From contig JALGWI010000008.1 of NCBI GenBank assembly GCA_025774245.1, positions 2,525-66,524 on the forward strand: 64,000 nt of DNA, given 5' to 3'. A program made the position numbers and the translations under genes. Positions 1 to 14,207 of this stretch are shown one piece after another (the stretch's first letter is position 1; each line of letters starts with the position of its first letter). The notes beneath the pieces are model-generated. The model worked only from the letters and a program-made list of their open reading frames with translations. It did not search any database and had not been told where the DNA came from. The stretch is from a bacterium. Lineage in GTDB: Bacteria > Joyebacterota > Joyebacteria > Joyebacterales > Joyebacteraceae.

Positions 1-2
1 TC

Positions 3-947
3 CACCTTGAGCCCTTCGTCGCCCGCGGGGACGTCCAGCTTCACGGCAGGCTCGACGAGTTCGCCCGCGGGCTCGAGCATCTCCAGAACTTCCTTGAGTA
101 CCAGCCGATCCGCCTCGTGGTGCCGGACCTCGCGACGCCGTTCGCGAAGGAGATTCGCGAGGCGGTCGCGGGGTACGCGTTCGTGCAGCTCGTGGCGGTC
201 CCCCTGAGATACCCGTTCGACCACGCCTCGGTCCTGGCACGTCACCTCGGTCTGCCGCACGACCTCGAGCACCCCGTGTGGGCGATCCCGACCGCGGGGA
301 TCTTCGCGGTCGACCGCGCGCTGACGTTCGGCAGGCCCGTCACCGAGCGTGTCGTCTCGCTGGGCGGACCGGCGGTCGACGAGCCCGTGCACGTCAGGAT
401 CCCCGTGGGCTACCCGATCGACGACGTGCTCGCGAATCACGTCTGCAGGGAGCCCGCCAGGGTCGTGTCGGGCGGGGTCTTTTCGGGCGACGCCATGGGC
501 GAGGACCGGAAGGGTCTCGACACGGAGACCGCCGGGCTCACCGTCCTCGCGGAGAACAGGAGTCGGCACCTCTTCGGGTTCGCGCGTCCCGGGTGGTCGC
601 GGCGCTCGTACGGGAGGACCTTCCTCTCCGGGATCCGCCCGACGTTCGCCGAGAGCATGAACACGGCGCTTCAGGGTGAGCTCCGCCCGTGCATAGCCTG
701 CGGGCAGTGCGTCGACGTCTGTCCCGCCGGGATCATGCCGAACGTGATCCACAAGTACCTCTACGCGGACGAGATCGAGAACACCATCGACGCCCGCGTG
801 GATCTCTGCTTCGAGTGCGGGCTCTGCTCGTACGTCTGCCCGTCGAAGATCGACCTCCGCCAGCAGTTCATCGACGCGAAGAGGGCGATCCAGGAAGAGC
901 TCGAGGCCATCGCGGAAGCCGAGGCCGCGCTGGAGGTGGAAGCTTGA
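3..947 (+). CDS. nqrA: Na+-translocating NADH:quinone oxidoreductase subunit A-like / RnfC-like C-terminal fragment. 5'-partial; the ORF is open to the window start.
   Basis: The frame is open from nt 3 with no upstream stop. The C-terminus has two CxxCxxCxxxCP ferredoxin motifs (CIACGQCVDVCP, CFECGLCSYVCP). It is the first gene of an operon whose downstream genes are NqrB-F-like. Confidence 0.65.
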   Translation, partial: HLEPFVARGDVQLHGRLDEFARGLEHLQNFLEYQPIRLVVPDLATPFAKEIREAVAGYAFVQLVAVPLRYPFDHASVLARHLGLPHDLEHPVWAIPTAGIFAVDRALTFGRPVTERVVSLGGPAVDEPVHVRIPVGYPIDDVLANHVCREPARVVSGGVFSGDAMGEDRKGLDTETAGLTVLAENRSRHLFGFARPGWSRRSYGRTFLSGIRPTFAESMNTALQGELRPCIACGQCVDVCPAGIMPNVIHKYLYADEIENTIDARVDLCFECGLCSYVCPSKIDLRQQFIDAKRAIQEELEAIAEAEAALEVEA

Positions 948-961
948 GGCTCGTCGCGAAC

Positions 962-2014
962 ATGCTCGATCGTGCGCGTCCCCTCTTCGAAGAGGGGGGC
1001 AGGTTCAATCTCCTCAAGCCCGTCTTCGACGCCGGAGACGCGCTCTTTCTCTCGCCGCTCGCGCGCACGTCGGTAGCACCCCACGTCCGCGATCCGCTCG
1101 ACGTCAAGCGCGTGATGACGACGGTGATCATCGCGGTCATCCCGTGCATCCTGGCTTCGGTCTACTTCTTCGGCCTGCGGATGCTCGCGATGTTCGTCGT
1201 CTCGTACGCGGTCGGGCTCTCCATTGAGGTCCTCTCCGCGATCGTCCGCAAGGAGGAGATCAACGAGGGCTTCTTCGTCACCGGCGCGCTCTTCCCGCTC
1301 ATCCTGCCGCCGGCGCTCCCGCTCTGGATGGTCGGGGTGGGCGTCGCCTTCGGGGTCATCGTCGGGAAGGAGATCTTCGGCGGGACCGGACGCAACGTCT
1401 TCAACCCGGCGCTCGTTGGGCGTGTGTTCCTCGCGCTCGCGTATCCGCGGGCGATGTCCGGAGCGTTCGTCGAGCCGGGAAGCGGACCGCTCGGACGCGT
1501 GACGCAGTACGCCGTCGATGCCGTCGCGACGGCCACGCCTCTCGCGGCCGCGAAGGGCGGCGACTTCGCCCCGATCCCGAACCTCCTCATCGGGAACGTG
1601 ACGGGAAGCGCGGGGGAGGTCTCGAGCATCGCGATCCTCCTGGGCGGCATCTTCCTCGTCGCCGTCGGGATAGCGAGCTGGCGCACGGTGTTCTCGATGC
1701 TCGGGTCGTTCGCGATCCTCTCCGCCGTCATGCACGGCGGGAGCCTCGAGATCGTCGGGTGGCACATGCTCGCCGGCGGGCTCCTCTTCGGCGCCTTCTT
1801 CATGGCGACCGATCCCGTGACGAGCCCGATGACGAACGCCGGGAAGTGGGCCTACGGGATCATCATCGGCGTGTCGGCCGCCCTCATCCGGAATCTCACC
1901 GGCTACGTCGAGGGCGTGATGTTCTCCATCCTTCTGGGGAACATCTTCGCGCCGGTCCTGGACGAGGCGTTCATCGCGGCGAGCCTGAGGAGGCTGCGTG
2001 AACAAAAAGCATAG
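962..2014 (+). CDS. nqrB: NADH:quinone oxidoreductase subunit B (NqrB/RnfD family)
   Basis: Polytopic membrane protein. The N-terminus LFEEGGRFNLLKPVFDAGDALFLSP...HVRDPLDVKRVMT resembles the cytoplasmic N-tail of Vibrio NqrB. The ATG at 962 lies 12 nt after a GAGG; the track ORF from 689 begins with an Arg-rich overlap with nqrA. Confidence 0.85.
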   Translation: MLDRARPLFEEGGRFNLLKPVFDAGDALFLSPLARTSVAPHVRDPLDVKRVMTTVIIAVIPCILASVYFFGLRMLAMFVVSYAVGLSIEVLSAIVRKEEINEGFFVTGALFPLILPPALPLWMVGVGVAFGVIVGKEIFGGTGRNVFNPALVGRVFLALAYPRAMSGAFVEPGSGPLGRVTQYAVDAVATATPLAAAKGGDFAPIPNLLIGNVTGSAGEVSSIAILLGGIFLVAVGIASWRTVFSMLGSFAILSAVMHGGSLEIVGWHMLAGGLLFGAFFMATDPVTSPMTNAGKWAYGIIIGVSAALIRNLTGYVEGVMFSILLGNIFAPVLDEAFIAASLRRLREQKA

Positions 2015-2636
2015 CGGATACGCGATCCTCTACGCGGCCGTCCTCGGTCTCGTCTGCGCGCTGGCTCTGACGGGCGTCGACCGCTTCACGGCGGAGAGGA
2101 AGGCGGCGAACGCGCAGGCGGAGGAGGTCCGGAACGTCCTCGGCGTTCTCGGCGTTCCGTTCGCCGCGGGCGCGAGCGCGGCAGAGCTCCTCGAGGTCTA
2201 CGAGTCGAACGTCCGGGACGAGGAGCGGAACGGCCGTGAGTTCTTCGTGTTCGATCATCCGTCTGCGGGCGAGCTCCTCGCGACGCGCTTCGAGGGGCCG
2301 GGTCTCTGGGGACCGGTCGAGGGGTTCCTCTGCCTCCGCGGAGATCGCGAGACGATCTACGCGGTCTCGTTCTACCGGCAGGAGGAGACGCCCGGGCTCG
2401 GCGGGGAGATCTCGTCCGACGCGTTCCAGGACCAGTTCCGCGGCAAGAAGATAGCGACGGCGGCGGGCGCGGGCATCCGCGTGGTCGCCGACGGGGCGGA
2501 CGCGCCGAACGAGGTCGACGCCATCGCCGGCGCGACGATGACGAGCGACAAGGTGCAGGCGATGCTCAACGAGACGATCGAGGAGATCGTCGGCGCGAAC
2601 GGCCGCCCGGCGAGGAGAGGTTCCCATGGCGGATAA
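1998..2636 (+). CDS. nqrC: NADH:quinone oxidoreductase subunit C (NqrC/RnfG family, FMN-binding)
   Basis: N-terminal transmembrane helix. Conserved flavinylation motif AIAGATMTSDKV. GTG start overlaps the nqrB 3' end. Confidence 0.8.
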   Translation: MNKKHSGYAILYAAVLGLVCALALTGVDRFTAERKAANAQAEEVRNVLGVLGVPFAAGASAAELLEVYESNVRDEERNGREFFVFDHPSAGELLATRFEGPGLWGPVEGFLCLRGDRETIYAVSFYRQEETPGLGGEISSDAFQDQFRGKKIATAAGAGIRVVADGADAPNEVDAIAGATMTSDKVQAMLNETIEEIVGANGRPARRGSHGG

Positions 2637-3306
2637 GAGCCCGGTCGCGTGCGTCACCTGCGTCTCCCGCGGCGGCGTCTGCGACGGGAAGGGCATCCAG
2701 ACGCTCAAGGACGGCGTCTGGGCCTCGAACCCGATCTCGATCCAGATCCTCGGGATCTGCTCCGCGCTTGCGGTCACGAACAGGCTCGAGAACTCGCTCG
2801 TGATGGGCGTGGCCCTCATCTTCGTCTGCGTCGGCTCGAACCTCTTCGTCTCGCTCCTCCGAAACGTCACGCCCCGGCGGATCCGCATGATCGCCGAGGT
2901 CGCGATCATCGCCACGTTCGTGATCGTCTTCGATCAGATCCTGAAGGCGTACTACTGGGAGATGTCGAAGCAGCTCGGCCCGTACGTCGGCCTCATCATC
3001 ACGAACTGCATCGTCATGGGGCGAGCCGAGGCCTTCGCGCTCCAGAACCGTCCGGTCGTCTCCATGGTCGACGGCCTGGCGAACGGAATCGGCTACGCCG
3101 TCGTCCTCGCGATCATCGGGTTCTTCCGCGAGCTCGCGGGGACAGGCGGGGTCGCAGGATTCCAGATCCTCTCGCTCGACTGGTACGTGCCCAATCAGCT
3201 GGCGGTCCTGGCGCCCGGCGCCTTCGTGGCGCTCGGTTTCCTGATCGCGCTCTTCAACTGGCTGAGCGGGGCGAACAAGGAGGAGAATGAGGGGAGCACG
3301 CCATGA
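2626..3306 (+). CDS. nqrD: NADH:quinone oxidoreductase subunit D (NqrD/RnfE family)
   Basis: PISIQILGICSALAVT matches the NqrD/RnfE N-terminal signature. Polytopic membrane protein. Has an unusual Cys-rich 25-aa N-terminal extension. Confidence 0.85.
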   Translation: MADKSPVACVTCVSRGGVCDGKGIQTLKDGVWASNPISIQILGICSALAVTNRLENSLVMGVALIFVCVGSNLFVSLLRNVTPRRIRMIAEVAIIATFVIVFDQILKAYYWEMSKQLGPYVGLIITNCIVMGRAEAFALQNRPVVSMVDGLANGIGYAVVLAIIGFFRELAGTGGVAGFQILSLDWYVPNQLAVLAPGAFVALGFLIALFNWLSGANKEENEGSTP

Positions 3307-3893
3307 CTGAGCTGTCGCCGTTCGTCATCCTGATTGCCGCGATCTTCACGAACAACATCCTGCTCGCGAACTTCCTCGGGATGTGCTCGTTTCTCGCGGT
3401 CTCGAAGAAGATCGAGACCGCGGCCGGGCTCGGCGCGGCCGTCATCTTCGTGACGACGGCCACGACGGCCATCAACTACGGCATCTACCATCACGTGCTC
3501 ACGCCCCTCGGTCTCACGTATCTCACGTTCATCGTCTTCATCGCGGTCATCGCCGCGTTCGTGCAGTTCGTGGAGATGTTCGTCGAGCGGTTCAGCCTCG
3601 GGCTCTACCACGCGCTCGGCATCTTCCTTCCGCTCATCACGGTCAACTGCGCCATCCTCGGCGCCTCGCTCTTCATGATCATCAGGAACTACACGTTCTG
3701 GCAGTCGGTCGCCTTCGGGTTCGGGGGCGGTGTCGGCTGGACGCTCGCGATCGTGCTCATCGCGGGCCTCCGGCAGAGGATGCGCTACTCCGACGTGCCG
3801 GTGCCCTTCCGCGGCGTCGCGATCGCGATGGTGATCACCGGCGTCATGGCGATGGCGTTCATGGGGTTCGCGGGAATGGTGAGGATCCAGTAG
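3303..3893 (+). CDS. nqrE: NADH:quinone oxidoreductase subunit E (NqrE/RnfA family)
   Basis: 196-aa polytopic membrane protein. ILLANFLGMCSFLAVSKK matches the NqrE/RnfA family. Confidence 0.9.
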   Translation: MTELSPFVILIAAIFTNNILLANFLGMCSFLAVSKKIETAAGLGAAVIFVTTATTAINYGIYHHVLTPLGLTYLTFIVFIAVIAAFVQFVEMFVERFSLGLYHALGIFLPLITVNCAILGASLFMIIRNYTFWQSVAFGFGGGVGWTLAIVLIAGLRQRMRYSDVPVPFRGVAIAMVITGVMAMAFMGFAGMVRIQ

Positions 3894-4988
3894 ATGGCTC
3901 TGCTCCTGCCGATACTCGTCTTCGGAGGTCTCCTCGTCGGGCTCACGATCGCCCTGTCGCTGGCGGAGCGCGTCCTCATCAACTACGGTGTCTGCAAGCT
4001 CGACGTCAACAACGGCGATCGCGAGTTCGAGGTCGACGGGGGGCAGACTCTCCTCTCGGCGCTGAACGAGTCGAAGGTCTTCATCCCCTCGGCGTGCGGC
4101 GGCCGCGGGTCGTGCGGACACTGCACCGTCACTGTCCTCTCGGGCGGCGGGCCGGTGCTCCCGACCGAGACGCCGTTCCTGACGAGGGTGGAGGTCAGGC
4201 AGGGCGTGCGCCTCGCCTGTCAGGTGAAGATCCGCGAGGACATCCGAATCAAGGTCCCGGAGGAGATCCTCAACGTCAAGATGTTCGCCGCGACCGTTTC
4301 GGCCAACCACCGGCTGACGCACGACCTCGTCGAGACCCACATGAGGCTCGACGAGCCGACCGAGATAGAGGCGAGGCCCGGGCAGTACGTGCAGCTGCAG
4401 GCTCCGGCGCCCGAGGGACCGGTCTACCGCGCGTACTCGATCAGCTCTCCCGCGTCCGTGAAGGACGAGGTCGAGCTCGTTGTGCGACTCGTTCCCGGCG
4501 GCATCGCGTCGACCTACATCCACGGCCTCGAGGAAGGCGACCAGGTCATCTTCACAGGACCGTACGGCGACTTCCGGATGAACGAGGAACCGGACGTCGA
4601 CATCGTCTGCATCGGCGGCGGATCGGGCATGGCGCCCTTGAAGAACCTCGTGCACACCGTGACCGCGCGCTGGCCGGAACGGAAGTGCTGGCTCTTCTTC
4701 GGCTGCCGCACGACGCAGGACATCTTCTACCTGGACGAGTTCCGGGAGCTCGAGAAGAAGAACCCGAACTTCCACGTCGTCTACGCGCTCTCCGATCCCC
4801 TCGAGGGCGAGGAGAAGTGGGAAGGGGAGACCGGGTTTATCCACCTGTCGGTCGACAAGCACCTCGACGTCAGCGACAGGAAGCGACAGGCGTTTCTGTG
4901 CGGCCCGCCGCCGATGGTCGAGGCCGTGATGAAGGTCCTCGAGGGCAAAGGGTTCAAGCCCGAGGACATCTACTACGACGAGTTCTAG
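3894..4988 (+). CDS. nqrF: NADH:quinone oxidoreductase subunit F (2Fe-2S ferredoxin plus FAD/NADH-binding)
   Basis: N-terminal transmembrane helix. 2Fe-2S motif CGGRGSCGHC...C. FAD motif RAYSISS. NAD motif GGGSGMAP. Confidence 0.9.
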   Translation: MALLLPILVFGGLLVGLTIALSLAERVLINYGVCKLDVNNGDREFEVDGGQTLLSALNESKVFIPSACGGRGSCGHCTVTVLSGGGPVLPTETPFLTRVEVRQGVRLACQVKIREDIRIKVPEEILNVKMFAATVSANHRLTHDLVETHMRLDEPTEIEARPGQYVQLQAPAPEGPVYRAYSISSPASVKDEVELVVRLVPGGIASTYIHGLEEGDQVIFTGPYGDFRMNEEPDVDIVCIGGGSGMAPLKNLVHTVTARWPERKCWLFFGCRTTQDIFYLDEFRELEKKNPNFHVVYALSDPLEGEEKWEGETGFIHLSVDKHLDVSDRKRQAFLCGPPPMVEAVMKVLEGKGFKPEDIYYDEF

Positions 4989-5000
4989 GGAGGTCGTCTC

Positions 5001-5453
5001 ATGGCCGTCACGACCGTTGCCTGCGTGCTGAGACGTGCCGCCGACTTCGAGTGCATCCTGATGGACTACTACCTCGGCCTCGCGGAGCAGACGACGCGGG
5101 AGGGGGTCAGGCTCCTCACCGACTACATGGCGCGGCACCGCCGCCGGCTCACCGAGGCGCTCGAGAGGTTCCCGGCCGGCGAGTACAAGAGGATCTCCGT
5201 CCTTCCGATCCGCTACGAGCCGGTCGCTGCGGAGTGCGACCACTTCTCGAGCAGGCCGCTGCCGCGGGACGCGACCGCGGCCGAGGTGCTCGATATCGCC
5301 ATCGAACTGGACGAGTGCCTGATATCGCTCTACCGTCAGGTGATCGAGCAGGACGTCGACCCCGAGGTGAAGGATCTCTTCGAGAGCCTCGTTCACCGTG
5401 AGGAGCGCGACGAGATTCAGCTCAAGAAGATCAAGGCGATGAACTACTTCTGA
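5001..5453 (+). CDS. Hypothetical protein, possibly a four-helix-bundle or ferritin-like fold
   Basis: 150-aa ORF with ordinary amino-acid composition, between nqrF and the polyprenyl synthase in the same orientation. No recognisable motif. Confidence 0.45.
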   Translation: MAVTTVACVLRRAADFECILMDYYLGLAEQTTREGVRLLTDYMARHRRRLTEALERFPAGEYKRISVLPIRYEPVAAECDHFSSRPLPRDATAAEVLDIAIELDECLISLYRQVIEQDVDPEVKDLFESLVHREERDEIQLKKIKAMNYF

Positions 5454-5472
5454 GTCGTCAGGGAACGCACAC

Positions 5473-6480
5473 ATGCAGCTTGCTGACATATACAGACCCG
5501 TCCGGGACGATCTCGACGCCGTCGAGGGTGTGCTTCGCAAGAGCCTGACGGGCACGGGCGATGGATCGATGGCGGAGGTCGGTCGGTACGTCCTCGAGGC
5601 GGGAGGCAAGCGTATGCGACCTGCGCTCGTGCTCCTCTCGGCCGGGGCGTCCGGCGGCGACGCTGCATCGGGTGCCAGGCAGCATCTCGTAGGCCTGGCC
5701 GCCGCCGCGGAGCTCATCCACATGGCGTCGCTCCTTCACGACGACGTCGTAGACGATGCGCGCCTGCGGCACCACAACCCCACGATCAACACGAGGTGGG
5801 GCGACGACGTCTCGATCGCGCTCGGCGACTACCTCTACTCAATCGCGTTCCACCTCATCTCCATGAGCGACGATCCCGGCATCGTCCAGGTCATGAGTTC
5901 CGCCACCGTCGCCATGTGCGAGGGTCAGCTCCTCCAGATCTGCGAGCGGACGAACCTGAACCTCTCCAGGGAGCGCTACGTCGAGATCGTCGAGAAAAAG
6001 ACCGCGGCCCTCTTCGCCGCCTCGGCCGAGGTCGGCGCCTCGCTCTCGAGCCGCAAGGAGTCCCTGAGGCGAGCGCTCCGCGACTACGGATTGAGCCTCG
6101 GCATCTCGTTTCAGATCGTCGACGACTACCTCGACCTCATCGGGGACGAGAAGCGGATGGGAAAGGAGCCCGGTCAGGACATCGCGGCCGGCGAGGCGAC
6201 CCTCCCGATGCTGAACTTGTGGGAGATCCTCTCGGACGAGGAGCGGAAGGCGACGGCCGATCTTCTGTCGTCGCACACCGGCGCCGACGCACTCTCGATC
6301 ATCAGGGAGAAGCTCGTGAGCACCGGGGCGGCCTCGATGACAGAGAAGGCCGCGATATCCTACGCGAACTCGGCGCGCGAGAGCCTGAGCGTGCTCACCA
6401 ACTCCACCTACAAGGAGAGCCTCCTCGGGCTCGCGGACTTCGTGCTCGAGCGCGGGTTCGGGAGCGCGGGAAGGGCGTAG
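5473..6480 (+). CDS. Polyprenyl diphosphate synthase (trans-isoprenyl diphosphate synthase, IspB/HepT/DmkB-like)
   Basis: Two DDxxD motifs (LLHDDVVDD and IVDDYLD), the GKRMRP motif, 335 aa. Confidence 0.85.
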   Translation: MQLADIYRPVRDDLDAVEGVLRKSLTGTGDGSMAEVGRYVLEAGGKRMRPALVLLSAGASGGDAASGARQHLVGLAAAAELIHMASLLHDDVVDDARLRHHNPTINTRWGDDVSIALGDYLYSIAFHLISMSDDPGIVQVMSSATVAMCEGQLLQICERTNLNLSRERYVEIVEKKTAALFAASAEVGASLSSRKESLRRALRDYGLSLGISFQIVDDYLDLIGDEKRMGKEPGQDIAAGEATLPMLNLWEILSDEERKATADLLSSHTGADALSIIREKLVSTGAASMTEKAAISYANSARESLSVLTNSTYKESLLGLADFVLERGFGSAGRA

Positions 6481-6581
6481 CCGCACCGCGGGAGCGGCGG
6501 CGCCCAGGCCGCAGCGGGGCCGAGCACGCGGGCACCGAGGGCCCACCAGAGCCGACGCGCAGCCGCCGCAGGCCAACCCAC

Positions 6582-6989
6582 ATGAAGCCGAATCCTGCAG
6601 TCGATCCCACTTTCCTCAAGCCGACGGCCACCGACGTGATCCTCATCGCGGTGGTCCTCGTTCTTGCGACCGCCTCGATCGTCTGGGTGGGCCGCGCCGA
6701 GAGCCGGACACCGGCCGGATCAGCCGTGGCGAAGATCTACCACGGCAACGTGCTCATCGAGGAGGTCGCGCTCGATGTCGATCGCGACCTCGAGCTCACC
6801 GACGTCGGCATGAGGGTCGAGGTGAGGGAGGGGAGGATCCGGGTCGTCGAGTCGGACTGCCCCCAGCAGGTCTGCGTCCATGCCGGCTGGATCCGGCGGG
6901 GCCGACAGGTGATCGCCTGCGTTCCGAACAAGGTCCTCATCACGATCGAGTCGTCGGAGCCGCCGTTCCTCGACGCCATCGTCCACTGA
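6582..6989 (+). CDS. NusG domain II-like small membrane protein (EetA-like candidate)
   Basis: N-terminal transmembrane helix, then a domain with CPQQVCVHAGWI...IACVPNKVLITIE (four-Cys NusG_II-type motif). The ATG at 6582 lies inside the longer track ORF from 5796. Confidence 0.6.
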   Translation: MKPNPAVDPTFLKPTATDVILIAVVLVLATASIVWVGRAESRTPAGSAVAKIYHGNVLIEEVALDVDRDLELTDVGMRVEVREGRIRVVESDCPQQVCVHAGWIRRGRQVIACVPNKVLITIESSEPPFLDAIVH

Positions 6990-7020
6990 CGCGGGCGTCG
7001 CCGCCCGCACGGGATGCCTC

Positions 7021-8307
7021 ATGGCAGAGCCGGACACCACCGATCACCACGGCACGCACAGGATGGCCCTCCTGGTGGCGGTCGCGTGCGTGCTCCAGAT
7101 CGCGGAGTCGCTCCTCCCGCATCCGATTCCGGGGCTGCGCCTGGGGCTCGCCAACACCCTGACCCTGGTCGCACTCGTGATGTTCGGGTTCCGCTCCGCG
7201 CTCGAGCTCACCGTGCTCCGAACGATCCTCTCCTCGTTCATCATCGGGACGTTCATGTCGCCGGGCTTCATCCTGAGCTTCTCGGCGGGGATCGTGAGCA
7301 CGTTCGTCATGGGTCTCGTCTACTGGCTCGCGACGAGGCACCGTCGCCTCGGGCTCAGCATCATCGGGGTGAGCGTCGTCGGCGCGCTCGCGCACAACAC
7401 GGTGCAGCTCCTTCTCGCCTACGCGCTTCTCGTTCGGCATCCCGGCATCTTCATCTTCTTCCCGTGGCTCATGATCGGGGCCGTCGTCATGGGGTGGGTG
7501 ACCGGACTCGTTGCGGGCGGAGTCTGCCGGAGGATCGCCGCGCCGCACGAGCACACGGAGCGGCGGATGGCGGTCGGGTCGAAGCCGGCACCGATGGTGC
7601 CGCGCGACTACGTGCCCGGCGACTCCCTCGTTCACCGTGTTCCCTCTGTTGTCAAGATCGCGAGCGTCGTCGTCCTGGCAATCGTCATTCTCGTGTTCAC
7701 CGACCCCTGGCTCTATCTTGCGATCTTCGTTCTCCTTCTCGTCGCGGGCGCGGTCTCGGGCGCCTCGCCGGTCTTCTTCGCGAAACGAGTGGGGAGATAC
7801 GCCTTCCTCCTCGCGGTCGCATTCCTGTTGCCCGCATTCTTCAACTCGGGTACGCACGTCCTCGCGAGCGCGGGCCCGCTCCGGATCACAACCGAGGGGA
7901 TCCGCGCCGGATGTTTCTTCGCCGCGCGGATTCTCCTGCTCATGATGGCAAGCTCGCTCTGGGTTCGAACGACGTCGCCGCAGGAGATGACGCGGGGACT
8001 CACGAAACTCCTGTCACCCTTGCGCGCATTTGGCATTCCCGTCGAAAGGTCTGCCGCCATCGTCTCCGAGGCGTGGCTCGCGATTCCAGCGTTCTGGGGG
8101 ACGGTGACGGACACGTTCCATATCGAGAACCTGAAGAAGTTGCGGGGTATCCGCGACTTCGTTCCGCTGCTCACGGAACTCATCGCGGCTCTGTACGTCG
8201 AGGCAGAAGATGCGGGAATCGACGGCTCCGCTCAGGGCGGAAGCGAGACTGCGACCGGGAGAAACGGAGACCGGCTTGCGGCCGATGGAGGAGGAGGGAC
8301 CTCCTGA
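7021..8307 (+). CDS. Fusion protein: Gx transporter (ECF S-component-like, 'heptaprenyl diphosphate synthase component I' family) N-terminal domain plus an ECF transporter T-component (EcfT/CbiQ)-like C-terminal domain
   Basis: Residues 1-175 are a small polytopic protein with the Gx-family pattern. Residues ~190-428 begin with YVPGDSLVHRVPSVVKI, an EcfT N-terminal motif, followed by EcfT-like transmembrane helices. A single uninterrupted ORF. Confidence 0.7.
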   Translation: MAEPDTTDHHGTHRMALLVAVACVLQIAESLLPHPIPGLRLGLANTLTLVALVMFGFRSALELTVLRTILSSFIIGTFMSPGFILSFSAGIVSTFVMGLVYWLATRHRRLGLSIIGVSVVGALAHNTVQLLLAYALLVRHPGIFIFFPWLMIGAVVMGWVTGLVAGGVCRRIAAPHEHTERRMAVGSKPAPMVPRDYVPGDSLVHRVPSVVKIASVVVLAIVILVFTDPWLYLAIFVLLLVAGAVSGASPVFFAKRVGRYAFLLAVAFLLPAFFNSGTHVLASAGPLRITTEGIRAGCFFAARILLLMMASSLWVRTTSPQEMTRGLTKLLSPLRAFGIPVERSAAIVSEAWLAIPAFWGTVTDTFHIENLKKLRGIRDFVPLLTELIAALYVEAEDAGIDGSAQGGSETATGRNGDRLAADGGGGTS

Positions 8308-8367
8308 GGGCCTGAAAGGGCCCGCCCGGCCGCTTCGCCACGACAACGCCCGCTTGGGGATACGCCC

Positions 8368-9393
8368 ATGGAGAGAAGGACCATCGGAGCTGCGCTCGTC
8401 TGCGCCGCGCTCGCCGGCGCCGCCGGCGTCGGGCTCCCCTCGTGCTCGTCGGACCGCAGCGGCTCCTCCTCGGATGACGTCTCCGACAAGACGCGTTTCA
8501 TGATGGGGACGTACGTCACCATCCACGTCCGGGGGCCGGCGGAGAGCGCGATCCCGGCGATCGAAGCGGCTCTCGACCGGATGGAGGAGATCGACAGGAA
8601 GTTCAACGTCACGAACCCCGAGAGCCCCCTCCACGCGTTCAATCACGATGGCACTCCGGTCACCGACGAGGAGATCCTGGCGGTCGTCGATGAGGCGATG
8701 AAGATGACTGGCCTCACGGACGGAGCGTTCGACGCGACGATCTCTCCTCTGATCGAGCTCTGGGGTTTCTACGATGAGACCCCCGCCCTTCCTGAGCATC
8801 AGAAGATCGAGTCGTGCATGGAGAGGATCGGCCACGAGCACGTGGTTCTCCTGGACGGCGTGCTCAGGAAGACGAAGGAGGGCGTTGGGATCGACCTGGG
8901 CGGCATAGCCAAGGGTTACGCCGTCGAGGAGGGCGCCGAGGTTCTGCGCGGCCTGGGTCTGACGGAGGCCCTCATCGACGCCGGGGGCGATATCTACGCG
9001 CTCGGTTCCCGGGGCGGAGAGCCCTGGAAGGTCGGCGTCAGAAGTCCCCGCGGGGAGGAGCTTCTCGGGTACATCGAGGTCGAGGACATGGCCGTCATGG
9101 GCTCGGGCGACTATGAGAGGTTCTTCATCCACGAGGGCAGGCGATACCATCACATCTTCGATCCCAGGACGGGATATCCGGCCGAAGGTCTGTCGGGAAT
9201 CACCGTCCTATCCTCCGAGCCGATGACGGCGGACGCCTGGGCGACCGCGCTCTTCGTCATGGGGCCTGAGGAAGGTCTCCGGGCGGCCGAGGAGATGCCG
9301 GACCTCGAGGTCATCATGGTCACGACATCGGGCGAAGTGCTCCACACGAGCGGGATGGGGAACGAGCTCAGGGCGCCGCCCGAAAACCAGTAG
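8368..9393 (+). CDS. apbE: FAD:protein FMN transferase (ApbE family) lipoprotein
   Basis: Lipobox LPSC after the signal peptide. ApbE motifs TRFMMGTYVTI, GIAKGYAV, DAGGDIY and GSGDYERFF. Confidence 0.85.
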   Translation: MERRTIGAALVCAALAGAAGVGLPSCSSDRSGSSSDDVSDKTRFMMGTYVTIHVRGPAESAIPAIEAALDRMEEIDRKFNVTNPESPLHAFNHDGTPVTDEEILAVVDEAMKMTGLTDGAFDATISPLIELWGFYDETPALPEHQKIESCMERIGHEHVVLLDGVLRKTKEGVGIDLGGIAKGYAVEEGAEVLRGLGLTEALIDAGGDIYALGSRGGEPWKVGVRSPRGEELLGYIEVEDMAVMGSGDYERFFIHEGRRYHHIFDPRTGYPAEGLSGITVLSSEPMTADAWATALFVMGPEEGLRAAEEMPDLEVIMVTTSGEVLHTSGMGNELRAPPENQ

Positions 9394-9416
9394 GAGAGAA
9401 TCGGGAGGAGGGTTTC

Positions 9417-10136
9417 TTGAAGCTGAGACTGAGTTCCATCGGATTCCTGTCGCTCGCGATACTCATCGCGATCGCCGGGCTCTCGTGGGCCGAAGAGGCC
9501 GCGACCGAGAAGACGAAGGGCGAGACGGCCGTCGAGGAGTACTTCGGTGACGGGGCCGAGATCATCCACAAGGCGCTCGAGCTGGTCGATCCGAAGCTCG
9601 CCGCCCTGGAGGAGCAGCTCGGGTTCGCGCTCGTCGCTGAGCCCGACGAGGACGAGGAGGTTGAGCGGAAGGCGACCTTCGACTACTACTTCGTGAAGAG
9701 CGGGGAGAAGGTCGGCGCGGCAACCGTCGTCTCCGCGAGGGGGAAGTGGGCGCCCGTGACGTATCTCGTGGTGCTCGGCTTCGACGCCGCGGTGACCCGC
9801 GTGGAGGTCATCGAGCACAGCGAGAAGCGCGGCAAGGACATCGAGGGCAGGACCTTCCTCGAGCAGTTCGACGGAAAGACGTCCGAAGACGACATCACGC
9901 TCACGACGGACATCACCGCGGTGAGCGGCGCGACGGTCTCGTCGCGGAGTGCCACCGAGGCGGTCCGGGCGGCGATCGTCGTCTACGAGGAGTTGATCCT
10001 CAAGGGCGGAGCTGAGAAGGACAAGAAGACCGCGGACGAGCACGGTGCGGCCTGCGATCACGGCGCCAAGGACGACCACGACGATCATGGCGCCAGGGAC
10101 GACCACGACGACCACTCCGAGTCGAAGGACGAGTAG
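9417..10136 (+). CDS. Secreted FMN-binding domain protein (NqrC/RnfG-type FMN_bind) with a His/Asp-rich C-terminal tail
   Basis: Signal peptide. Flavinylation-type motif DITAVSGATVSS. C-terminal HGAACDHGAKDDHDDHGARDDHDDHSE. TTG start 5 nt after GGGAGGAGG. Confidence 0.7.
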   Translation: MKLRLSSIGFLSLAILIAIAGLSWAEEAATEKTKGETAVEEYFGDGAEIIHKALELVDPKLAALEEQLGFALVAEPDEDEEVERKATFDYYFVKSGEKVGAATVVSARGKWAPVTYLVVLGFDAAVTRVEVIEHSEKRGKDIEGRTFLEQFDGKTSEDDITLTTDITAVSGATVSSRSATEAVRAAIVVYEELILKGGAEKDKKTADEHGAACDHGAKDDHDDHGARDDHDDHSESKDE

Positions 10137-10173
10137 CGATCGTCGGCGCACCGCTTCATGTCAGCGAAACGAG

Positions 10174-10202
10174 AAGGGCCGCGGCACGATGCCGCGGCCC
10201 TT
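10174..10202. terminator. Bidirectional hairpin terminator between convergent genes
   Basis: Perfect 12-bp GC-rich stem AAGGGCCGCGGC / GCCGCGGCCCTT with an ACGAT loop, between the + strand gene ending at 10136 and the - strand gene ending at 10228. Confidence 0.5.
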
Positions 10203-10227
10203 TGACCATCACGCGCCGGTCGCGCCG

Positions 10228-12741
10228 TTACTCCGGCAGCACGTCAGTCGTCGCTTCGAGCTGGAACAGGTTATCGATCCCCGTATTCCCGAGGCTGAGG
10301 AACCGGTGGAGCCCCAGGCCCGCCGTCACCTCCTCGAGGCGCCTGTCGAAGAACGACCGCTTCTCGGTGCAGTAGGCGATGTTCGCCCTCTCCCTCTTCA
10401 CGCCGATCTTCTCGCACGCGTAGTCGATCGTCGCCGAGAGGCCGCCGGACTCGTCGACGAGTCCGAGCTCGAGTGCCCGGGCACCCACGTAGACCCTGCC
10501 CTCCGCGAGCTCGCGCAGCCGGTCGGCGCTCATCCCTCGGCTGTCCGATGCCTTCTCGATGAAGTCGTCGTAGAACCACTCCATGGCCTCCTGCGCCATC
10601 TCGAGTTCCTTCTCCGTGAGATGCCGCGTGAGGGACCACTGGTCGGAGTGCTCCCCGCGCTTGATCGTCTCGTGCGTCGCGTCGATCTTGTCGTAGAGCT
10701 CGGCCAGGACCGGCTTCATCCCCATGACGCCGATGCTCCCCGTGATCGTGAGCGGCTGAACGAAGATCTTCTCAGCGGCGACTGCGATGTAGTAGCCGCC
10801 CGATGCGGCGACGTCGGCCATCGACACGATCAGGGGCTTCTCCTTCGCGAGCTTGACCGTCTCGTTCCAGATGATGTCGGAGGCGAGGCCGCTCCCTCCT
10901 CCGCTGTCGACTCGGAGGATCACCGCCTTGACGCGCGAGTCCTTCCGCACCTTCTTGAGCGCCGCCACGAGTGTCTCCGCGCCGATCGAGCGCGCGCCGG
11001 AGACGGGGTCGGTGCCGCCCTTGCCTTCGTGGATCGTCCCGTAGGCTCCCACGACCGCGATCGTCGGCCCGTAGGTCCAGTCGTACACCTTGTCCTGCCA
11101 CTTCCGCACGCTGACGACGCCGATGTTGTCGGGATCGTCCGGTACCTTCTCCCCGGTGAACTCCCTCGCGGCGACCTTCGCTTCCTCGTAGAAGCCGAGG
11201 CGATCGACCAGGCCGGCCTCGAGCGCCGCCGGCGGCGTGAAGAGCCGTCCGTTGCAGAGCTCCTCGGCCTTGCTCCGAATGATCCCGCGTCCCTCGACGA
11301 TCGACTCGACGATGGCCTCGTAGCTGGAGTCGACCAGTTCCTGCACCTCCACGCGCTGCTCGGCGGTCAGGGAATCGGGGCCGAGCGAATGGAAGGTGCT
11401 CTTGTACTTCCCGGCCGTCATGTAGTCCCACTCGATGCCGAGCTTCTCGGTGGTGCCCGTGAACCGCATGATCGTCCTGTGGGCCCCGAGGCCGTCGATT
11501 CCGCTCGCCGGGTTCATGACGACGAGGTCGGCGGCGGTGGCCAGGTAGTACTCCTGCGAGCTCGCGCCGTGCTCGAGGTACACGACGATCTTCTTCCCCT
11601 TGACGTCGCGCGCCCGCACGATCTCGTCGCGGATGTCCTGCGAGAGCGCCGACGGGCCACCGAAGAACCCGCGGCCGAGCCCCTTGATGCGGAACAGGAT
11701 GCAGTCGATCGAGCTCTGATCCGCCGCTCGCCGGATGTCCCTGACGATCCGCTGCGCGCTCGCCTCGGGCCCGCCGAAGAGGCTCCAGCCCGGCGACGTG
11801 TCGGAGAGCGGGCCGGTGATCTTGATTTCGGCCACCTGGTGCGACGGCTTGATGACGCTCCTCATACGCTGTCCCGTGAAGAGCACGTCGTAGGTCATGA
11901 CGCGATCGATCGACGGCGTGAAGCTCCTGGCCGAGGCGCCGGCCCCGACGTGCGTTCCTCCGAGCCAGAGCCCGAGGCTCGTCTCTTCCTCGCGCGCTCC
12001 CTCATACCGGTACGACTTCATCGAGCCCCGGAGGATCAGTCCGTTCATGATCTCGGTCTCGAGCCCGCCGACGTACGACGCCTCGTCCCAGTCCCAGCCC
12101 CGCGGAACGCTGGCGTCCGCCATGAGCGTGAGGCGGTTCCCGAACGGACGGACGGCGAGGCCGAACACGTAGGACATGGTCGTCGACTGGCACGAGCAAT
12201 CGGCGGGCAAGATCGGGTCGCTCAGGTAGGTAGGCTCCGAGAGGTTCCTGAGCGTGGCGCCGAGCGACAGGACGCTCGACGGACGGATCATGAGTCCCAC
12301 GTCCCACGTGCCCGACTTCTTGCGGGTGCCGAACTGCGGCCTGAACCAGCGGTAGTCGAAGCCGAGACCCCACGAACGCGACTGCCCGAAGGCGAAGCCG
12401 AGGGTGTAGGTGTCCATGGCGTTTCCGCCCATGCGGAGCCCGGAGATGTCAGGATCGTCGTACGGTTCCCAGAGGTACTGCCGGTCGTAACCGAACCCGA
12501 AGCTGCCGAGCTTGACCGCGGCCGAGCCTCCCGCCGACTTCGAGCCGGCGGTCGAGTACGACACGTAGAGGCTCTGTTCGGGGTAGAGCGCGAGCCCGCC
12601 CGGGTTCAGGAAGACCGCCGTCGCGTCGTCGTTGACGGCGACCGAACTCGCTCCCCGCAACCAGGTGTTCGGGAGGATGTCCGCCTGGGCTCCTCCGGCG
12701 AAGACCGCCGCCACGATGAGCACTGCTGCAATCGTCCGCAT
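10228..12741 (-). CDS. sppA: Signal peptide peptidase SppA (two S49 domains, 67K type) fused to a ~300-aa N-terminal beta-barrel-like (PorV/FadL-like) domain
   Basis: Signal peptide. The N-terminal domain has alternating aromatic/Gly beta-strand patterns (LGFAFGQS, WGLGFDYRW). Two S49 peptidase domains lie in the C-terminal 550 aa. Confidence 0.8.
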   Translation of the reverse strand: MRTIAAVLIVAAVFAGGAQADILPNTWLRGASSVAVNDDATAVFLNPGGLALYPEQSLYVSYSTAGSKSAGGSAAVKLGSFGFGYDRQYLWEPYDDPDISGLRMGGNAMDTYTLGFAFGQSRSWGLGFDYRWFRPQFGTRKKSGTWDVGLMIRPSSVLSLGATLRNLSEPTYLSDPILPADCSCQSTTMSYVFGLAVRPFGNRLTLMADASVPRGWDWDEASYVGGLETEIMNGLILRGSMKSYRYEGAREEETSLGLWLGGTHVGAGASARSFTPSIDRVMTYDVLFTGQRMRSVIKPSHQVAEIKITGPLSDTSPGWSLFGGPEASAQRIVRDIRRAADQSSIDCILFRIKGLGRGFFGGPSALSQDIRDEIVRARDVKGKKIVVYLEHGASSQEYYLATAADLVVMNPASGIDGLGAHRTIMRFTGTTEKLGIEWDYMTAGKYKSTFHSLGPDSLTAEQRVEVQELVDSSYEAIVESIVEGRGIIRSKAEELCNGRLFTPPAALEAGLVDRLGFYEEAKVAAREFTGEKVPDDPDNIGVVSVRKWQDKVYDWTYGPTIAVVGAYGTIHEGKGGTDPVSGARSIGAETLVAALKKVRKDSRVKAVILRVDSGGGSGLASDIIWNETVKLAKEKPLIVSMADVAASGGYYIAVAAEKIFVQPLTITGSIGVMGMKPVLAELYDKIDATHETIKRGEHSDQWSLTRHLTEKELEMAQEAMEWFYDDFIEKASDSRGMSADRLRELAEGRVYVGARALELGLVDESGGLSATIDYACEKIGVKRERANIAYCTEKRSFFDRRLEEVTAGLGLHRFLSLGNTGIDNLFQLEATTDVLPE

Positions 12742-12939: not shown

Positions 12940-14127
12940 CTAGTTGACGTAGAGGCGGAAGTCCACCATCAGGTCCCTGTTGTCCTCGAACGCGCGCGCG
13001 ACGTCGACGCGGAACTCGCCGAGTCCGGGCGCGTCCCAGTGGAACCCGATGCCGAGGTCGTACTTGAGCTCGTCAAACTGGTAGCCCTTGCTCGACCAGG
13101 TCTCTCCGACGTCGGCGTAGTAGATCACCTCGAACTCGTGCCAGATCCTGACGCCGTACTCGAGGCGCGTGAAGAAGACGTTCTTGCCGGAGTACTCCTT
13201 GCGCTCGTATCCCGCGAGGTTCTCGATGCCGCCGAGGTAGAAGAGCTTGTGCGACGGGAAATCGGTGCCGCTCGCGATTCCCCACTGGGAGATGAGCGTG
13301 AGCGTCTGCGTGTCGGTGATGCGCCAGTAAGGCATGACGTCGAGCGTGTACTTCACGAAGTCGTAGTCGCCACCGGTGCTCTTGCCCGAGCGCTCGAAGA
13401 ACCCGCGGAGGCGCCAACCGCTGTGCGAGATCGCGTCCCTCGAGTCATACGCGAAGTTGAGGTACCAGCTGTTCATCTTCCCTTCGTACCCCCACGCGTT
13501 GATCTCGTTTCCGACCATGAGCGCCGGGTTCTCGCGCCACCTCTCGTTGTTTCGGAAGAGGCTCCAGACGCTCTGCGCGGTCGTCAGAGACGTGAGGTCG
13601 TCCGTCCGGTACTCGAGGCGGAAGAGGAGCTCGGGATTCACGATGTGCTGGATGAAGAACGTCCCGCCCTCGCGCATGAAGTAGTCCCTGAGGTCGCGCC
13701 TCGCGGTGACCGCCCGGAGGTTGTTGTCGAGGTCGCCGATGGCTTCCTCGTCCTGACGGGACATGGCCGTCTTCTTGTAGAAGTCGACGCCGAACGAGAG
13801 GCTCTTCTGGCTGAGGAGCGGCTGTTCGAACTCAAGCTGGTAGAAACTGGCGCTCCGGGCCGAGGGCCAGCCCCAGAGCGCGACGACGCGCGGGTGGAGG
13901 CGGGTCTCCGAGCGATACCGGAGGCCGAGGTAGAAGTCGATACCGTCCACGCGGTTGTAGTAGATTCTGCCGGCCGGACCGAGGCAGCTCCCTCCGTCGA
14001 AACACCAGTTGGTGAAATCCGAGGCGTTCACCTCGAGGAAGGCTTCGGGGAAGTCGTCGGCCACTGCCGTCGTCGTGACGACGGCGATGAGTACGAGAGC
14101 GAGAAGCGTGATTCTCCGTGCGGGCAT
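12940..14127 (-). CDS. Omp85/BamA-TamA family outer membrane protein (surface antigen D15 beta-barrel)
   Basis: Signal peptide MPARRITLLALVLIAVV. C-terminal FYLGGIENLAGY...GIGFHWDAPGLGEFRVDVA barrel signature. GGAGGA RBS before the ATG at 14127; the track ORF extends to 14184. Confidence 0.7.
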   Translation of the reverse strand: MPARRITLLALVLIAVVTTTAVADDFPEAFLEVNASDFTNWCFDGGSCLGPAGRIYYNRVDGIDFYLGLRYRSETRLHPRVVALWGWPSARSASFYQLEFEQPLLSQKSLSFGVDFYKKTAMSRQDEEAIGDLDNNLRAVTARRDLRDYFMREGGTFFIQHIVNPELLFRLEYRTDDLTSLTTAQSVWSLFRNNERWRENPALMVGNEINAWGYEGKMNSWYLNFAYDSRDAISHSGWRLRGFFERSGKSTGGDYDFVKYTLDVMPYWRITDTQTLTLISQWGIASGTDFPSHKLFYLGGIENLAGYERKEYSGKNVFFTRLEYGVRIWHEFEVIYYADVGETWSSKGYQFDELKYDLGIGFHWDAPGLGEFRVDVARAFEDNRDLMVDFRLYVN

Positions 14128-14207
14128 GACGGTCCTCCGCGGACGGTCCGATGCGGCCTGGCCCGACGCACGTGTATACGACATCGTGAGAGGGGGGCAG
14201 GTTTCGC

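Follow-up and report, generated by a model that had tools for sequence, protein, structure and literature searches.

Here, we found that six genes at positions 5001-10136 of a 64,000-nucleotide stretch of bacterial DNA (contig JALGWI010000008.1, lineage Joyebacterota; hereafter the window) probably form the tail of an nqr operon of at least 10 kb, which encodes an NADH:quinone oxidoreductase that translocates Na+ (Na+-NQR), and that this tail falls into two modules, 5001-6480 and 6582-10136. The second module likely specifies an exporter of flavin adenine dinucleotide (FAD) of the energy-coupling factor (ECF) type together with ApbE, which would attach flavin mononucleotide (FMN) to NqrB, NqrC and an additional secreted flavoprotein. 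The original prediction, made from the letters of the window alone, had described the six genes as a flavin-based module for extracellular electron transfer (EET), resembling the EET locus of Listeria, in the orientation of nqrF and directly behind it.

The six open reading frames (ORFs) indeed fill the stretch directly 3' of nqrF on the plus strand (Table 1), as the original prediction had stated, and the calls that the Joint Genome Institute (JGI) made for this organism on another, independent contig match them gene for gene. The intergenic gaps from nqrF onward measure 12, 19, 101, 31, 60 and 23 nt in a window with a G+C content of 63-69%, and none of the terminator-like sites within the stretch exceeds the expectation from shuffled sequence. 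Beyond its last gene, a GC-rich hairpin likely marks the end of the operon. Gaps, terminator scan and hairpin are consistent with a single transcription unit from nqrA to the last flavoprotein gene. A scan of positions 1-12000 for riboswitches and other RNA elements by Rfam E-value returned only two sub-threshold chance matches, the 101-nt gap 5' of the NusG_II gene folds no better than shuffled sequences, and no sigma-70 promoters were found, a result that is uninformative for this phylum.

Table 1. Genes and other features of the window referred to in the text
Feature	Positions	Strand	Remarks
nqrA	3-947	+	5' end cut by the window; two CxxCxxCxxxCP 4Fe-4S motifs, 690-725 and 807-842
nqrB	962-2014	+	E=2e-74 to Vibrio NqrB chains; FMN site GSAGEVSS at 1604-1627
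nqrC, FMN_bind protein	1998-2636	+	flavinylation motif DAIAGAT at 2517-2537
nqrD	2626-3306	+	Rnf-Nqr family
nqrE	3303-3893	+	Rnf-Nqr family
nqrF	3894-4988	+	Fer2, FAD_binding_6 and NAD_binding_1; N-terminal transmembrane helix
150-residue ferritin-like four-helix-bundle protein ("hypothetical")	5001-5453	+	Nqr-linked seventh gene
trans-polyprenyl diphosphate synthase, long-chain type, HepT/IspB-like	5473-6480	+	DDVVD 5740-5754, DDYLD 6121-6135
EetA-like single-pass membrane protein, NusG_II domain	6582-6989	+	Cys triad DCPxxxC 6855-6875, CVPN 6918-6929
fused EetB-like ECF-S (residues 18-165) and FmnA/EcfT-like ECF-T (residues ~202-397)	7021-8307	+	putative FAD exporter
ApbE FAD:protein FMN transferase	8368-9393	+	N-terminal signal, lipobox-like LPSC
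secreted RnfG-like FMN_bind protein	9417-10136	+	TTG start, GGAGG ribosome-binding site, Sec signal; SGAT 9924-9935 (Thr173)
GC-rich hairpin, 14 bp	10173-10203	.	z=-3.9; lies where the FMN_bind and sppA genes converge
sppA-type peptidase, two S49 domains	10228-12741	-	837 residues

Central to the second module is a polypeptide of 428 residues, which we analysed with Pfam profiles judged, here as elsewhere, against their gathering cut-offs. Its N-terminal half matches Hpre_diP_synt_I (PF07456) with E=1.2e-37 (bit score 129.7, cut-off 30) and its C-terminal half matches CbiQ with E=2e-14. In an AlphaFold2 model built with 20 homologues (predicted local distance difference test score 80.7, predicted template modelling score 0.80), a disordered linker of ~30 residues parts the halves; the first adopts the six-helix ECF-S fold, and the top Foldseek matches of the second in the PDB are all ECF-T chains (7nnu_D, 4huq_T, 4rfs_T; prob 1.00). 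The modelled folds thus confirm both halves as the ECF-S-like and EcfT-like components that had been proposed from the sequence, with the correction that the equivalents of EetB and FmnA are two domains of one protein. This fusion is no peculiarity of the window: all of the 120 homologues listed, out of at least 371, carry both domains. The first coupling motif of ECF-T proteins, TRG, lies at residues 324-326, and the second is not recognisable.

In Listeria, EetB (PF07456) is an FAD-binding ECF-S-like protein and FmnA an ECF-T protein, both are needed for FAD export to the ApbE protein FmnB, and the ATPases EcfA/A' are required as well; natural EetB-ECF-T fusions exist, and eetB lies near eetA in 3,328 genomes and near apbE in 2,169 (Rivera-Lugo 2023). 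By homology to Listeria EetB and FmnA, the fusion would carry FAD outward. If it were instead an importer of riboflavin, FMN or FAD like RibU-ECF, scavenging flavin rather than exporting it, this would suit the best structural match of its ECF-S half, the riboflavin importer RibU, and the fact that the classical ECF transporters are all importers. However, the sole characterised member of PF07456 exports FAD and is dispensable for import, and the near-obligate linkage to a periplasmic ApbE and its substrates (34 of 37 loci) fits export, not uptake, so that we regard an importer as improbable. Another function is implied by the JGI annotation of many homologues as 'heptaprenyl diphosphate synthase component I', for which the polyprenyl synthase encoded two genes upstream could serve as the partner. 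This is barely credible, as EetB binds FAD experimentally, and we ruled it out on the grounds of an ECF-S fold fused to ECF-T and of about 23 Desulfobacterota loci that carry the fusion with no polyprenyl synthase nearby.

Directly upstream of the fusion lies the NusG_II protein, in which PF07009 (E=1.9e-24) follows a single N-terminal transmembrane helix. Its proposed role as an EetA-like candidate gains from this match above the cut-off and from its position beside the fusion in all 44 loci that could be scored; the EetA proteins in Data Set S1 of Rivera-Lugo 2023 are likewise PF07009 NusG_II proteins. The Cys triad DCPxxxC...C[V/L]PN is kept in at least 90% of 49 aligned family members and in the best solved relative, 4esn, whereas 4obi is without the second Cys, which suggests a metal or redox site. 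By the positive-inside rule, the family shows a weak bias toward a cytosolic N-terminus with a periplasmic domain (28 versus 10 of 46).

The ApbE domain is full length (E=3.9e-84, profile positions 1-266 of 266), which upholds the assignment of an FMN transferase equivalent to FmnB. That it is a lipoprotein, as had also been suggested, is less clear, since the hydrophobic N-terminus is followed by LPSC, where Pro at -2 makes a non-canonical lipobox; the ApbE of a relative of 68% identity has LTSC, and those of other lineages have a transmembrane anchor. The last gene of the module encodes a secreted protein with a single FMN_bind domain (E=5.7e-11) and SGAT at residues 170-173, kept in 32 of 34 family members and replaced by AGAT or VGAT in the other two. 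The family motif reads SGAT(I/V)SS and the signal peptides are of the AxA type. Thus, the FMN-binding domain, the Sec signal and the flavinylation motif bear out a secreted FMN-binding protein, but not the two-domain lipoprotein that a PplA-like protein would be: the window protein has a single domain, and Cys is missing from its cleavage site. Among solved structures it is closest to RnfG subunits, and it shares 42% identity over its full length with the cassette protein of Omnitrophota and 26% over 112 residues with the NqrC of its own operon. The window copy alone ends in a His/Asp-rich tail of ~45 residues (DHGAKDDHDDHGARDDHDDH, 10002-10133), which is absent from its orthologues and possibly binds metal; the flavoprotein tails of the closest relative are rich in Pro, Glu and Ala. 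No second FMN_bind homologue and no cytochrome was found elsewhere in the window at E<1e-3 to 1e-4.

Is this gene arrangement a common motif among related loci? To the six-frame ORFs of 53 collected loci, we mapped proteins of the window and of relatives with phmmer; the synteny counts given in this work refer to the 49 non-redundant loci, with those loci as denominators that have enough flanking sequence, and are uncorrected for shared ancestry. Besides the invariable NusG_II gene upstream of the fusion, ApbE was found downstream of it in 34 of 37 loci, a porin gene between the fusion and ApbE in 31 of 38, and an orthologous FMN_bind gene after ApbE in 27 of 33. This order is kept across at least five phyla. 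NusG_II protein, EetB::EcfT fusion, porin, ApbE and RnfG-like FMN_bind protein hence make up the conserved core of a cassette. The porin (for instance at 11343-12461 in L002 and 11339-12583 in L004, ~31 loci in all) combines a signal peptide with an N-terminal coiled coil and a barrel of the Porin_4/Porin_O_P type, and its C-terminus reads ...GWRTTF. Porin and FMN_bind genes occur together in 27 loci, are both missing from 6 and are discordant in none, a tally that again takes no account of shared ancestry. The window, together with contigs near-identical to it, is the only case of an FMN_bind gene without a porin: there is no porin remnant in its 60-nt gap and no porin homologue elsewhere in its 64 kb at E<1e-3 to 1e-4. 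The window is therefore a reduced version of the cassette, without the porin and without the UbiA prenyltransferase that we describe below.

The membrane redox systems beside the cassette vary. Nqr adjoins it in 8 of the 49 loci, and the junction is shared by at least three phyla, namely the lineage of the window, Omnitrophota and Poribacteria. Genes nqrABCDEF and a polyprenyl synthase gene lie directly upstream in the window, its relative 'bacterium BHB10-38_Bin_124' (66-68% identity; nqrABCDEF adjoining the cassette), four Omnitrophota loci and one Poribacteria locus. The Omnitrophota and Poribacteria loci (L008, L015, L022, L023, L026) also have a UbiA prenyltransferase gene, equivalent to DmkA/MenA (Pfam E=3e-35; 7663-8589 in L022), between nqrF and the synthase, and thus the full Listeria-like set with Nqr replacing Ndh2. 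In an Elusimicrobia locus (L049, 12678-18813), Nuo genes of the complex I type, and not Nqr, come after a polyprenyl synthase and the complete cassette, a third kind of partner. In the ~23 Desulfobacterota loci, the upstream genes encode cytochrome b (Ni_hydr_CYTB), multihaem cytochromes and a protein resembling response regulators, and an OmcA/MtrC-like multihaem cytochrome is encoded downstream in the majority of those whose downstream flank is long enough (examples of cytochrome-flanked loci are L004, L006, L017, L025, L034 and L041), which suggests a combined flavin and cytochrome cluster for extracellular electron transfer. A small membrane protein of ~155-190 residues without a Pfam match, absent from the window, adjoins the cassette in Omnitrophota, Elusimicrobia and Planctomycetota (14196-14663 in L022, 11250-11825 in L044; also L020, L023, L026, L008 and L049); genes for a response regulator and a histidine kinase often come next.

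The original prediction was open to the objection that the adjacency to apbE might be incidental, that is, that unrelated housekeeping genes happen to lie behind nqr. Compact high-GC genomes do pack unrelated genes tightly, and Nqr is adjacent in just 8 of 49 loci. However, gene order is conserved in at least five phyla, the Nqr junction recurs, the gaps are short and no terminator intervenes; chance adjacency is contradicted by the synteny counts and very improbable. Both the link to apbE and the Nqr junction are conserved, with Nqr as one of several partners.

The complex to which the cassette is joined in the window is a Na+-NQR with all six subunits NqrA-F, the Fer2, FAD and NAD domains of NqrF and the FMN sites in NqrB and NqrC. 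At the attachment site in NqrB (GEVSS), Ser takes the place of Thr236 in Vibrio NqrB (GEVST); in the relative of 68% identity the site reads GETSA. NqrA deviates from the standard Na+-NQR. It retains both 4Fe-4S motifs intact, as in RnfC, at the places where Vibrio NqrA has lost cysteines; NqrA has been described as cofactor-free, with these cysteines lost (Reyes-Prieto 2014). Two such motifs are also present in the NqrA of L002, L015, L022, L026 and L047, and Pfam Fer4 matches were found in the NqrA of L054-L056, whose Nqr is linked to the 150-residue protein. Nearly all examined Nqr linked to the cassette or to this protein are thereby covered, the exception being the NqrA of L039, without a 4Fe-4S motif. 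Judging by these motifs, there looks to be a clade of Fe-S-bearing Nqr, which may stand midway between Rnf and Nqr in evolution, and no published account of an Fe-S-bearing NqrA was found in the literature corpus searched. Apparent NqrA matches in L027 and L049 were rejected as mere Fer4 proteins, the one in L049 being NuoI in a Nuo operon. In the Poribacteria locus L015 (3885-7506), NqrF is a Fer2 protein of 164 residues, followed by ORFs that look NuoF- and NuoG-like, which suggests a different electron-input head on the Nqr membrane core.

The first module appears to serve this quinone reductase. The 150-residue product of its first gene, which the original prediction counted as a hypothetical member of the EET-like module, gives only a sub-threshold Pfam match to Rubrerythrin, and it has 202 homologues, nearly all of exactly 150 residues, whose identity across phyla is 54-83%. 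The gene follows nqrF directly, with no flavin cassette nearby, in Eisenbacteria, Planctomycetes and an unassigned contig (it lies at 9001-9453 in L054, L055 and L056). Because it accompanies nqrF even where the cassette is missing, it belongs to Nqr and not to the flavin cassette. A model of the protein shows a four-helix bundle; its best matches in the PDB, at a weak E of ~0.01, are without exception ferritin-like (1vjx, Dps/Dpr), and E17, H46, D98, D104, E128 and E134 are invariant. The analogy with NqrM suggests a possible iron-handling role for the Nqr complex, and we consider the protein a candidate seventh subunit or iron-handling maturation factor, NqrM-like in position. In the window, this gene occupies the position that UbiA has in the Omnitrophota and Poribacteria loci, and no UbiA homologue (DmkA) was detected in the 64 kb at E<1e-3 to 1e-4.

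The second gene encodes a polyprenyl synthase (Pfam polyprenyl_synt, E=4e-67), which NCBIfam places near HepT, IspB and IdsA with no cut-off reached; the residues preceding DDVVD (HMASLLHDDVVDD) are, we take it, of the long-chain HepT/IspB type. Genes for polyprenyl synthases and UbiA also flank nqr operons without the cassette, so the likeness to DmkB that had been proposed is not demonstrable and the window synthase cannot be assigned specifically to a DmkB-like role. From its genomic company, the synthase appears tied to the quinone reductase, for which it would make the quinone tail.

Building on gene content, domain and fold identities, motifs and conserved synteny, we propose that the EetB::EcfT fusion and the EetA-like NusG_II protein, presumably with EcfA/A' encoded elsewhere, move cytosolic FAD across the inner membrane. 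Periplasmic ApbE would use the exported FAD and attach FMN covalently to NqrB, at the Ser in GEVSS, to NqrC, at the Thr in AGAT, and to Thr173 in SGAT of the secreted flavoprotein. As the FMN_bind gene stays with the cassette even without Nqr, in the ~23 Desulfobacterota loci, its product is taken as a cognate substrate of ApbE. The flavoprotein itself is most plausibly a periplasmic carrier of one or two electrons, fed from Nqr or the quinone pool. That it serves as an electron outlet, supplied by Nqr or quinol, is plausible because the cassette always lies beside a membrane redox module and, in Desulfobacterota, beside cytochromes of the extracellular type.

Several observations weigh against this proposal. 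A motif scan of all ORFs (Walker A plus LSGGQ) found no ABC or ECF ATPase, neither in the 64-kb window nor in the 53 loci (+/-10 kb each); fewer than 70% of 20 family members keep the Arg of TRG; the direction of transport is not readable from sequence; and the best structural match of the ECF-S half is an importer. The topology of the NusG_II protein is ambiguous, as the window copy points opposite to the bias of its family, and a Listeria delta-eetA mutant has no EET phenotype. In addition, an apbE gene downstream of nqr is ordinary in Vibrio-type operons, no membrane quinol oxidase, terminal reductase or acceptor gene is encoded with the flavoprotein of the window, and its flavoprotein copy, lacking the porin, may work differently or be partly decayed.

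Some of these points would suit a module for Nqr maturation only, in which the exporter and ApbE act on NqrB and NqrC alone and the FMN_bind protein is a spare NqrC/RnfG subunit or an assembly intermediate. In two Omnitrophota loci (L039, L047), nqr lies downstream of NusG_II, fusion and ApbE genes with neither an FMN_bind gene nor a homologue of the cassette porin (in L047, an outer-membrane protein of another family is encoded between ApbE and nqrA), so that exporter and ApbE can serve Nqr alone. The flavoprotein has the size and fold type of RnfG/NqrC, and the operon of the window holds no acceptor or reductase gene. However, the FMN_bind gene is kept with the cassette in ~23 loci without Nqr or Rnf within 10 kb, its product is just 26% identical to the NqrC of the same operon, the signal peptide is of a cleavable-looking AxA type and not the anchor expected of a complex subunit, and in relatives it strictly co-occurs with an outer-membrane porin. 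A role in Nqr maturation only is accordingly unlikely in our view, if far from negligible. An equally tentative extension in the opposite direction is that the cassette is an undescribed trans-envelope flavin pathway of diderms, which plugs into interchangeable inner-membrane modules for electron input (Nqr with MenA and synthase, Nuo, or cytochromes); that electrons or flavin shuttles reach the cell surface by way of the flavoprotein and the porin with which it co-occurs; and that the window is a porin-less derivative, with Nqr feeding a periplasmic flavoprotein that has a His-rich metal-binding tail. Taken jointly, we hold these statements to be doubtful. No published description of a porin-containing cassette or of swappable input modules was found in the literature corpus searched.

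How does the proposed exporter and flavinylation unit compare with known systems? Vibrio-type operons have the order nqrABCDEF-apbE-nqrM, and in Shewanella FAD is exported by Bfe/YeeO of the MATE type. The window shares with the Vibrio-type operon an apbE behind nqr, a small accessory gene linked to Nqr and the need of ApbE for periplasmic FAD, but its exporter is of the ECF type and encoded in the operon, its accessory gene encodes the ferritin-like protein instead of NqrM, and its NqrA keeps the two 4Fe-4S motifs.

The EET locus of Listeria monocytogenes comprises dmkA, eetB, fmnA, dmkB, ndh2, eetA, pplA and fmnB (Light 2018, Rivera-Lugo 2023). Both loci combine in one cluster the families of EetA (PF07009), EetB (PF07456), FmnA (ECF-T/CbiQ) and FmnB (ApbE) with an FMN_bind substrate of ApbE, a polyprenyl synthase and an NADH:quinone oxidoreductase. 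The ECF ATPases of Listeria are encoded outside its locus. The oxidoreductase is the six-subunit Na+-NQR in the window and the type II enzyme Ndh2 in Listeria, so that the predicted replacement of one by the other holds, with nqrABCDEF present and the junction recurring in at least three phyla. Unlike in Listeria, EetB and FmnA are fused; DmkA/UbiA, which the Omnitrophota and Poribacteria relatives have as Listeria does, is missing; the flavoprotein combines a Sec signal with a single RnfG-like domain where PplA has two domains and a lipid anchor; and the lineage is diderm, with an outer-membrane porin added in relatives. The statement that most of the Listeria locus is reproduced thus stands for EetA, EetB, the FmnA-like and FmnB-like functions and an ApbE substrate, but not for Ndh2, DmkA and the architecture of PplA. 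By analogy, the window locus would work like the FAD-trafficking unit of Listeria in a different assembly.

Clusters of eetA, eetB and apbE are also known beside Rnf in Clostridia, in 572 genomes (Rivera-Lugo 2023). As in the window, a flavin exporter and ApbE there lie beside a pump of the Rnf/Nqr family whose B/D and C/G subunits need covalent FMN, whereas the additional secreted FMN_bind protein and the diderm host set the window apart. The partner systems named in the accessible text of that study are Rnf, EET, MsrQ-like and NapH-like ones, with Nqr not among them. A further counterpart is Ca. Effluviviacota (VGIX01), a high-GC Gram-negative lineage of seeps and hydrothermal sites, for which the accessible part of the paper describes 'NUO-DMK-EET-FMN' sets with DmkAB, EetAB and FmnAB and sketches a flavin-export model for Nqr (mBio 2024); this part gives gene presence per metagenome-assembled genome (MAG) and says nothing of operon architecture, of an S-T fusion, of a link to the porin or of a cassette that spans phyla. 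The named relatives of the RlmN protein of the window are Ca. Eisenbacteria (58-66% identity), and with this affinity and relatives among Guaymas MAGs the organism may be close to Ca. Effluviviacota. Downstream of the operon, the SppA-type peptidase is unusually long, with an N-terminal region without a Pfam match, and is followed by an Omp85-family gene at 12940-14184.

In summary, the principle of ECF-mediated flavin export is already published (Rivera-Lugo 2023; Ca. Effluviviacota 2024), and the gain of the present analysis lies in architecture and breadth, not in the concept. The delivery of FAD to periplasmic ApbE in Gram-negative bacteria has been settled in only a few models, with MATE-type Bfe. 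The locus of the window and its relatives indicate that in several uncultured phyla an ECF-type exporter does this work, its gene forming one unit with those of the respiratory complexes that depend on covalent flavin. They provide a concrete, clonable set of five genes for ECF-mediated export, Nqr maturation and, possibly, flavoprotein-based periplasmic electron transfer. If the secreted flavoprotein is indeed an outlet, the logic of flavin-based extracellular electron transfer would reach beyond Firmicutes into diderms, Nqr being the electron donor.

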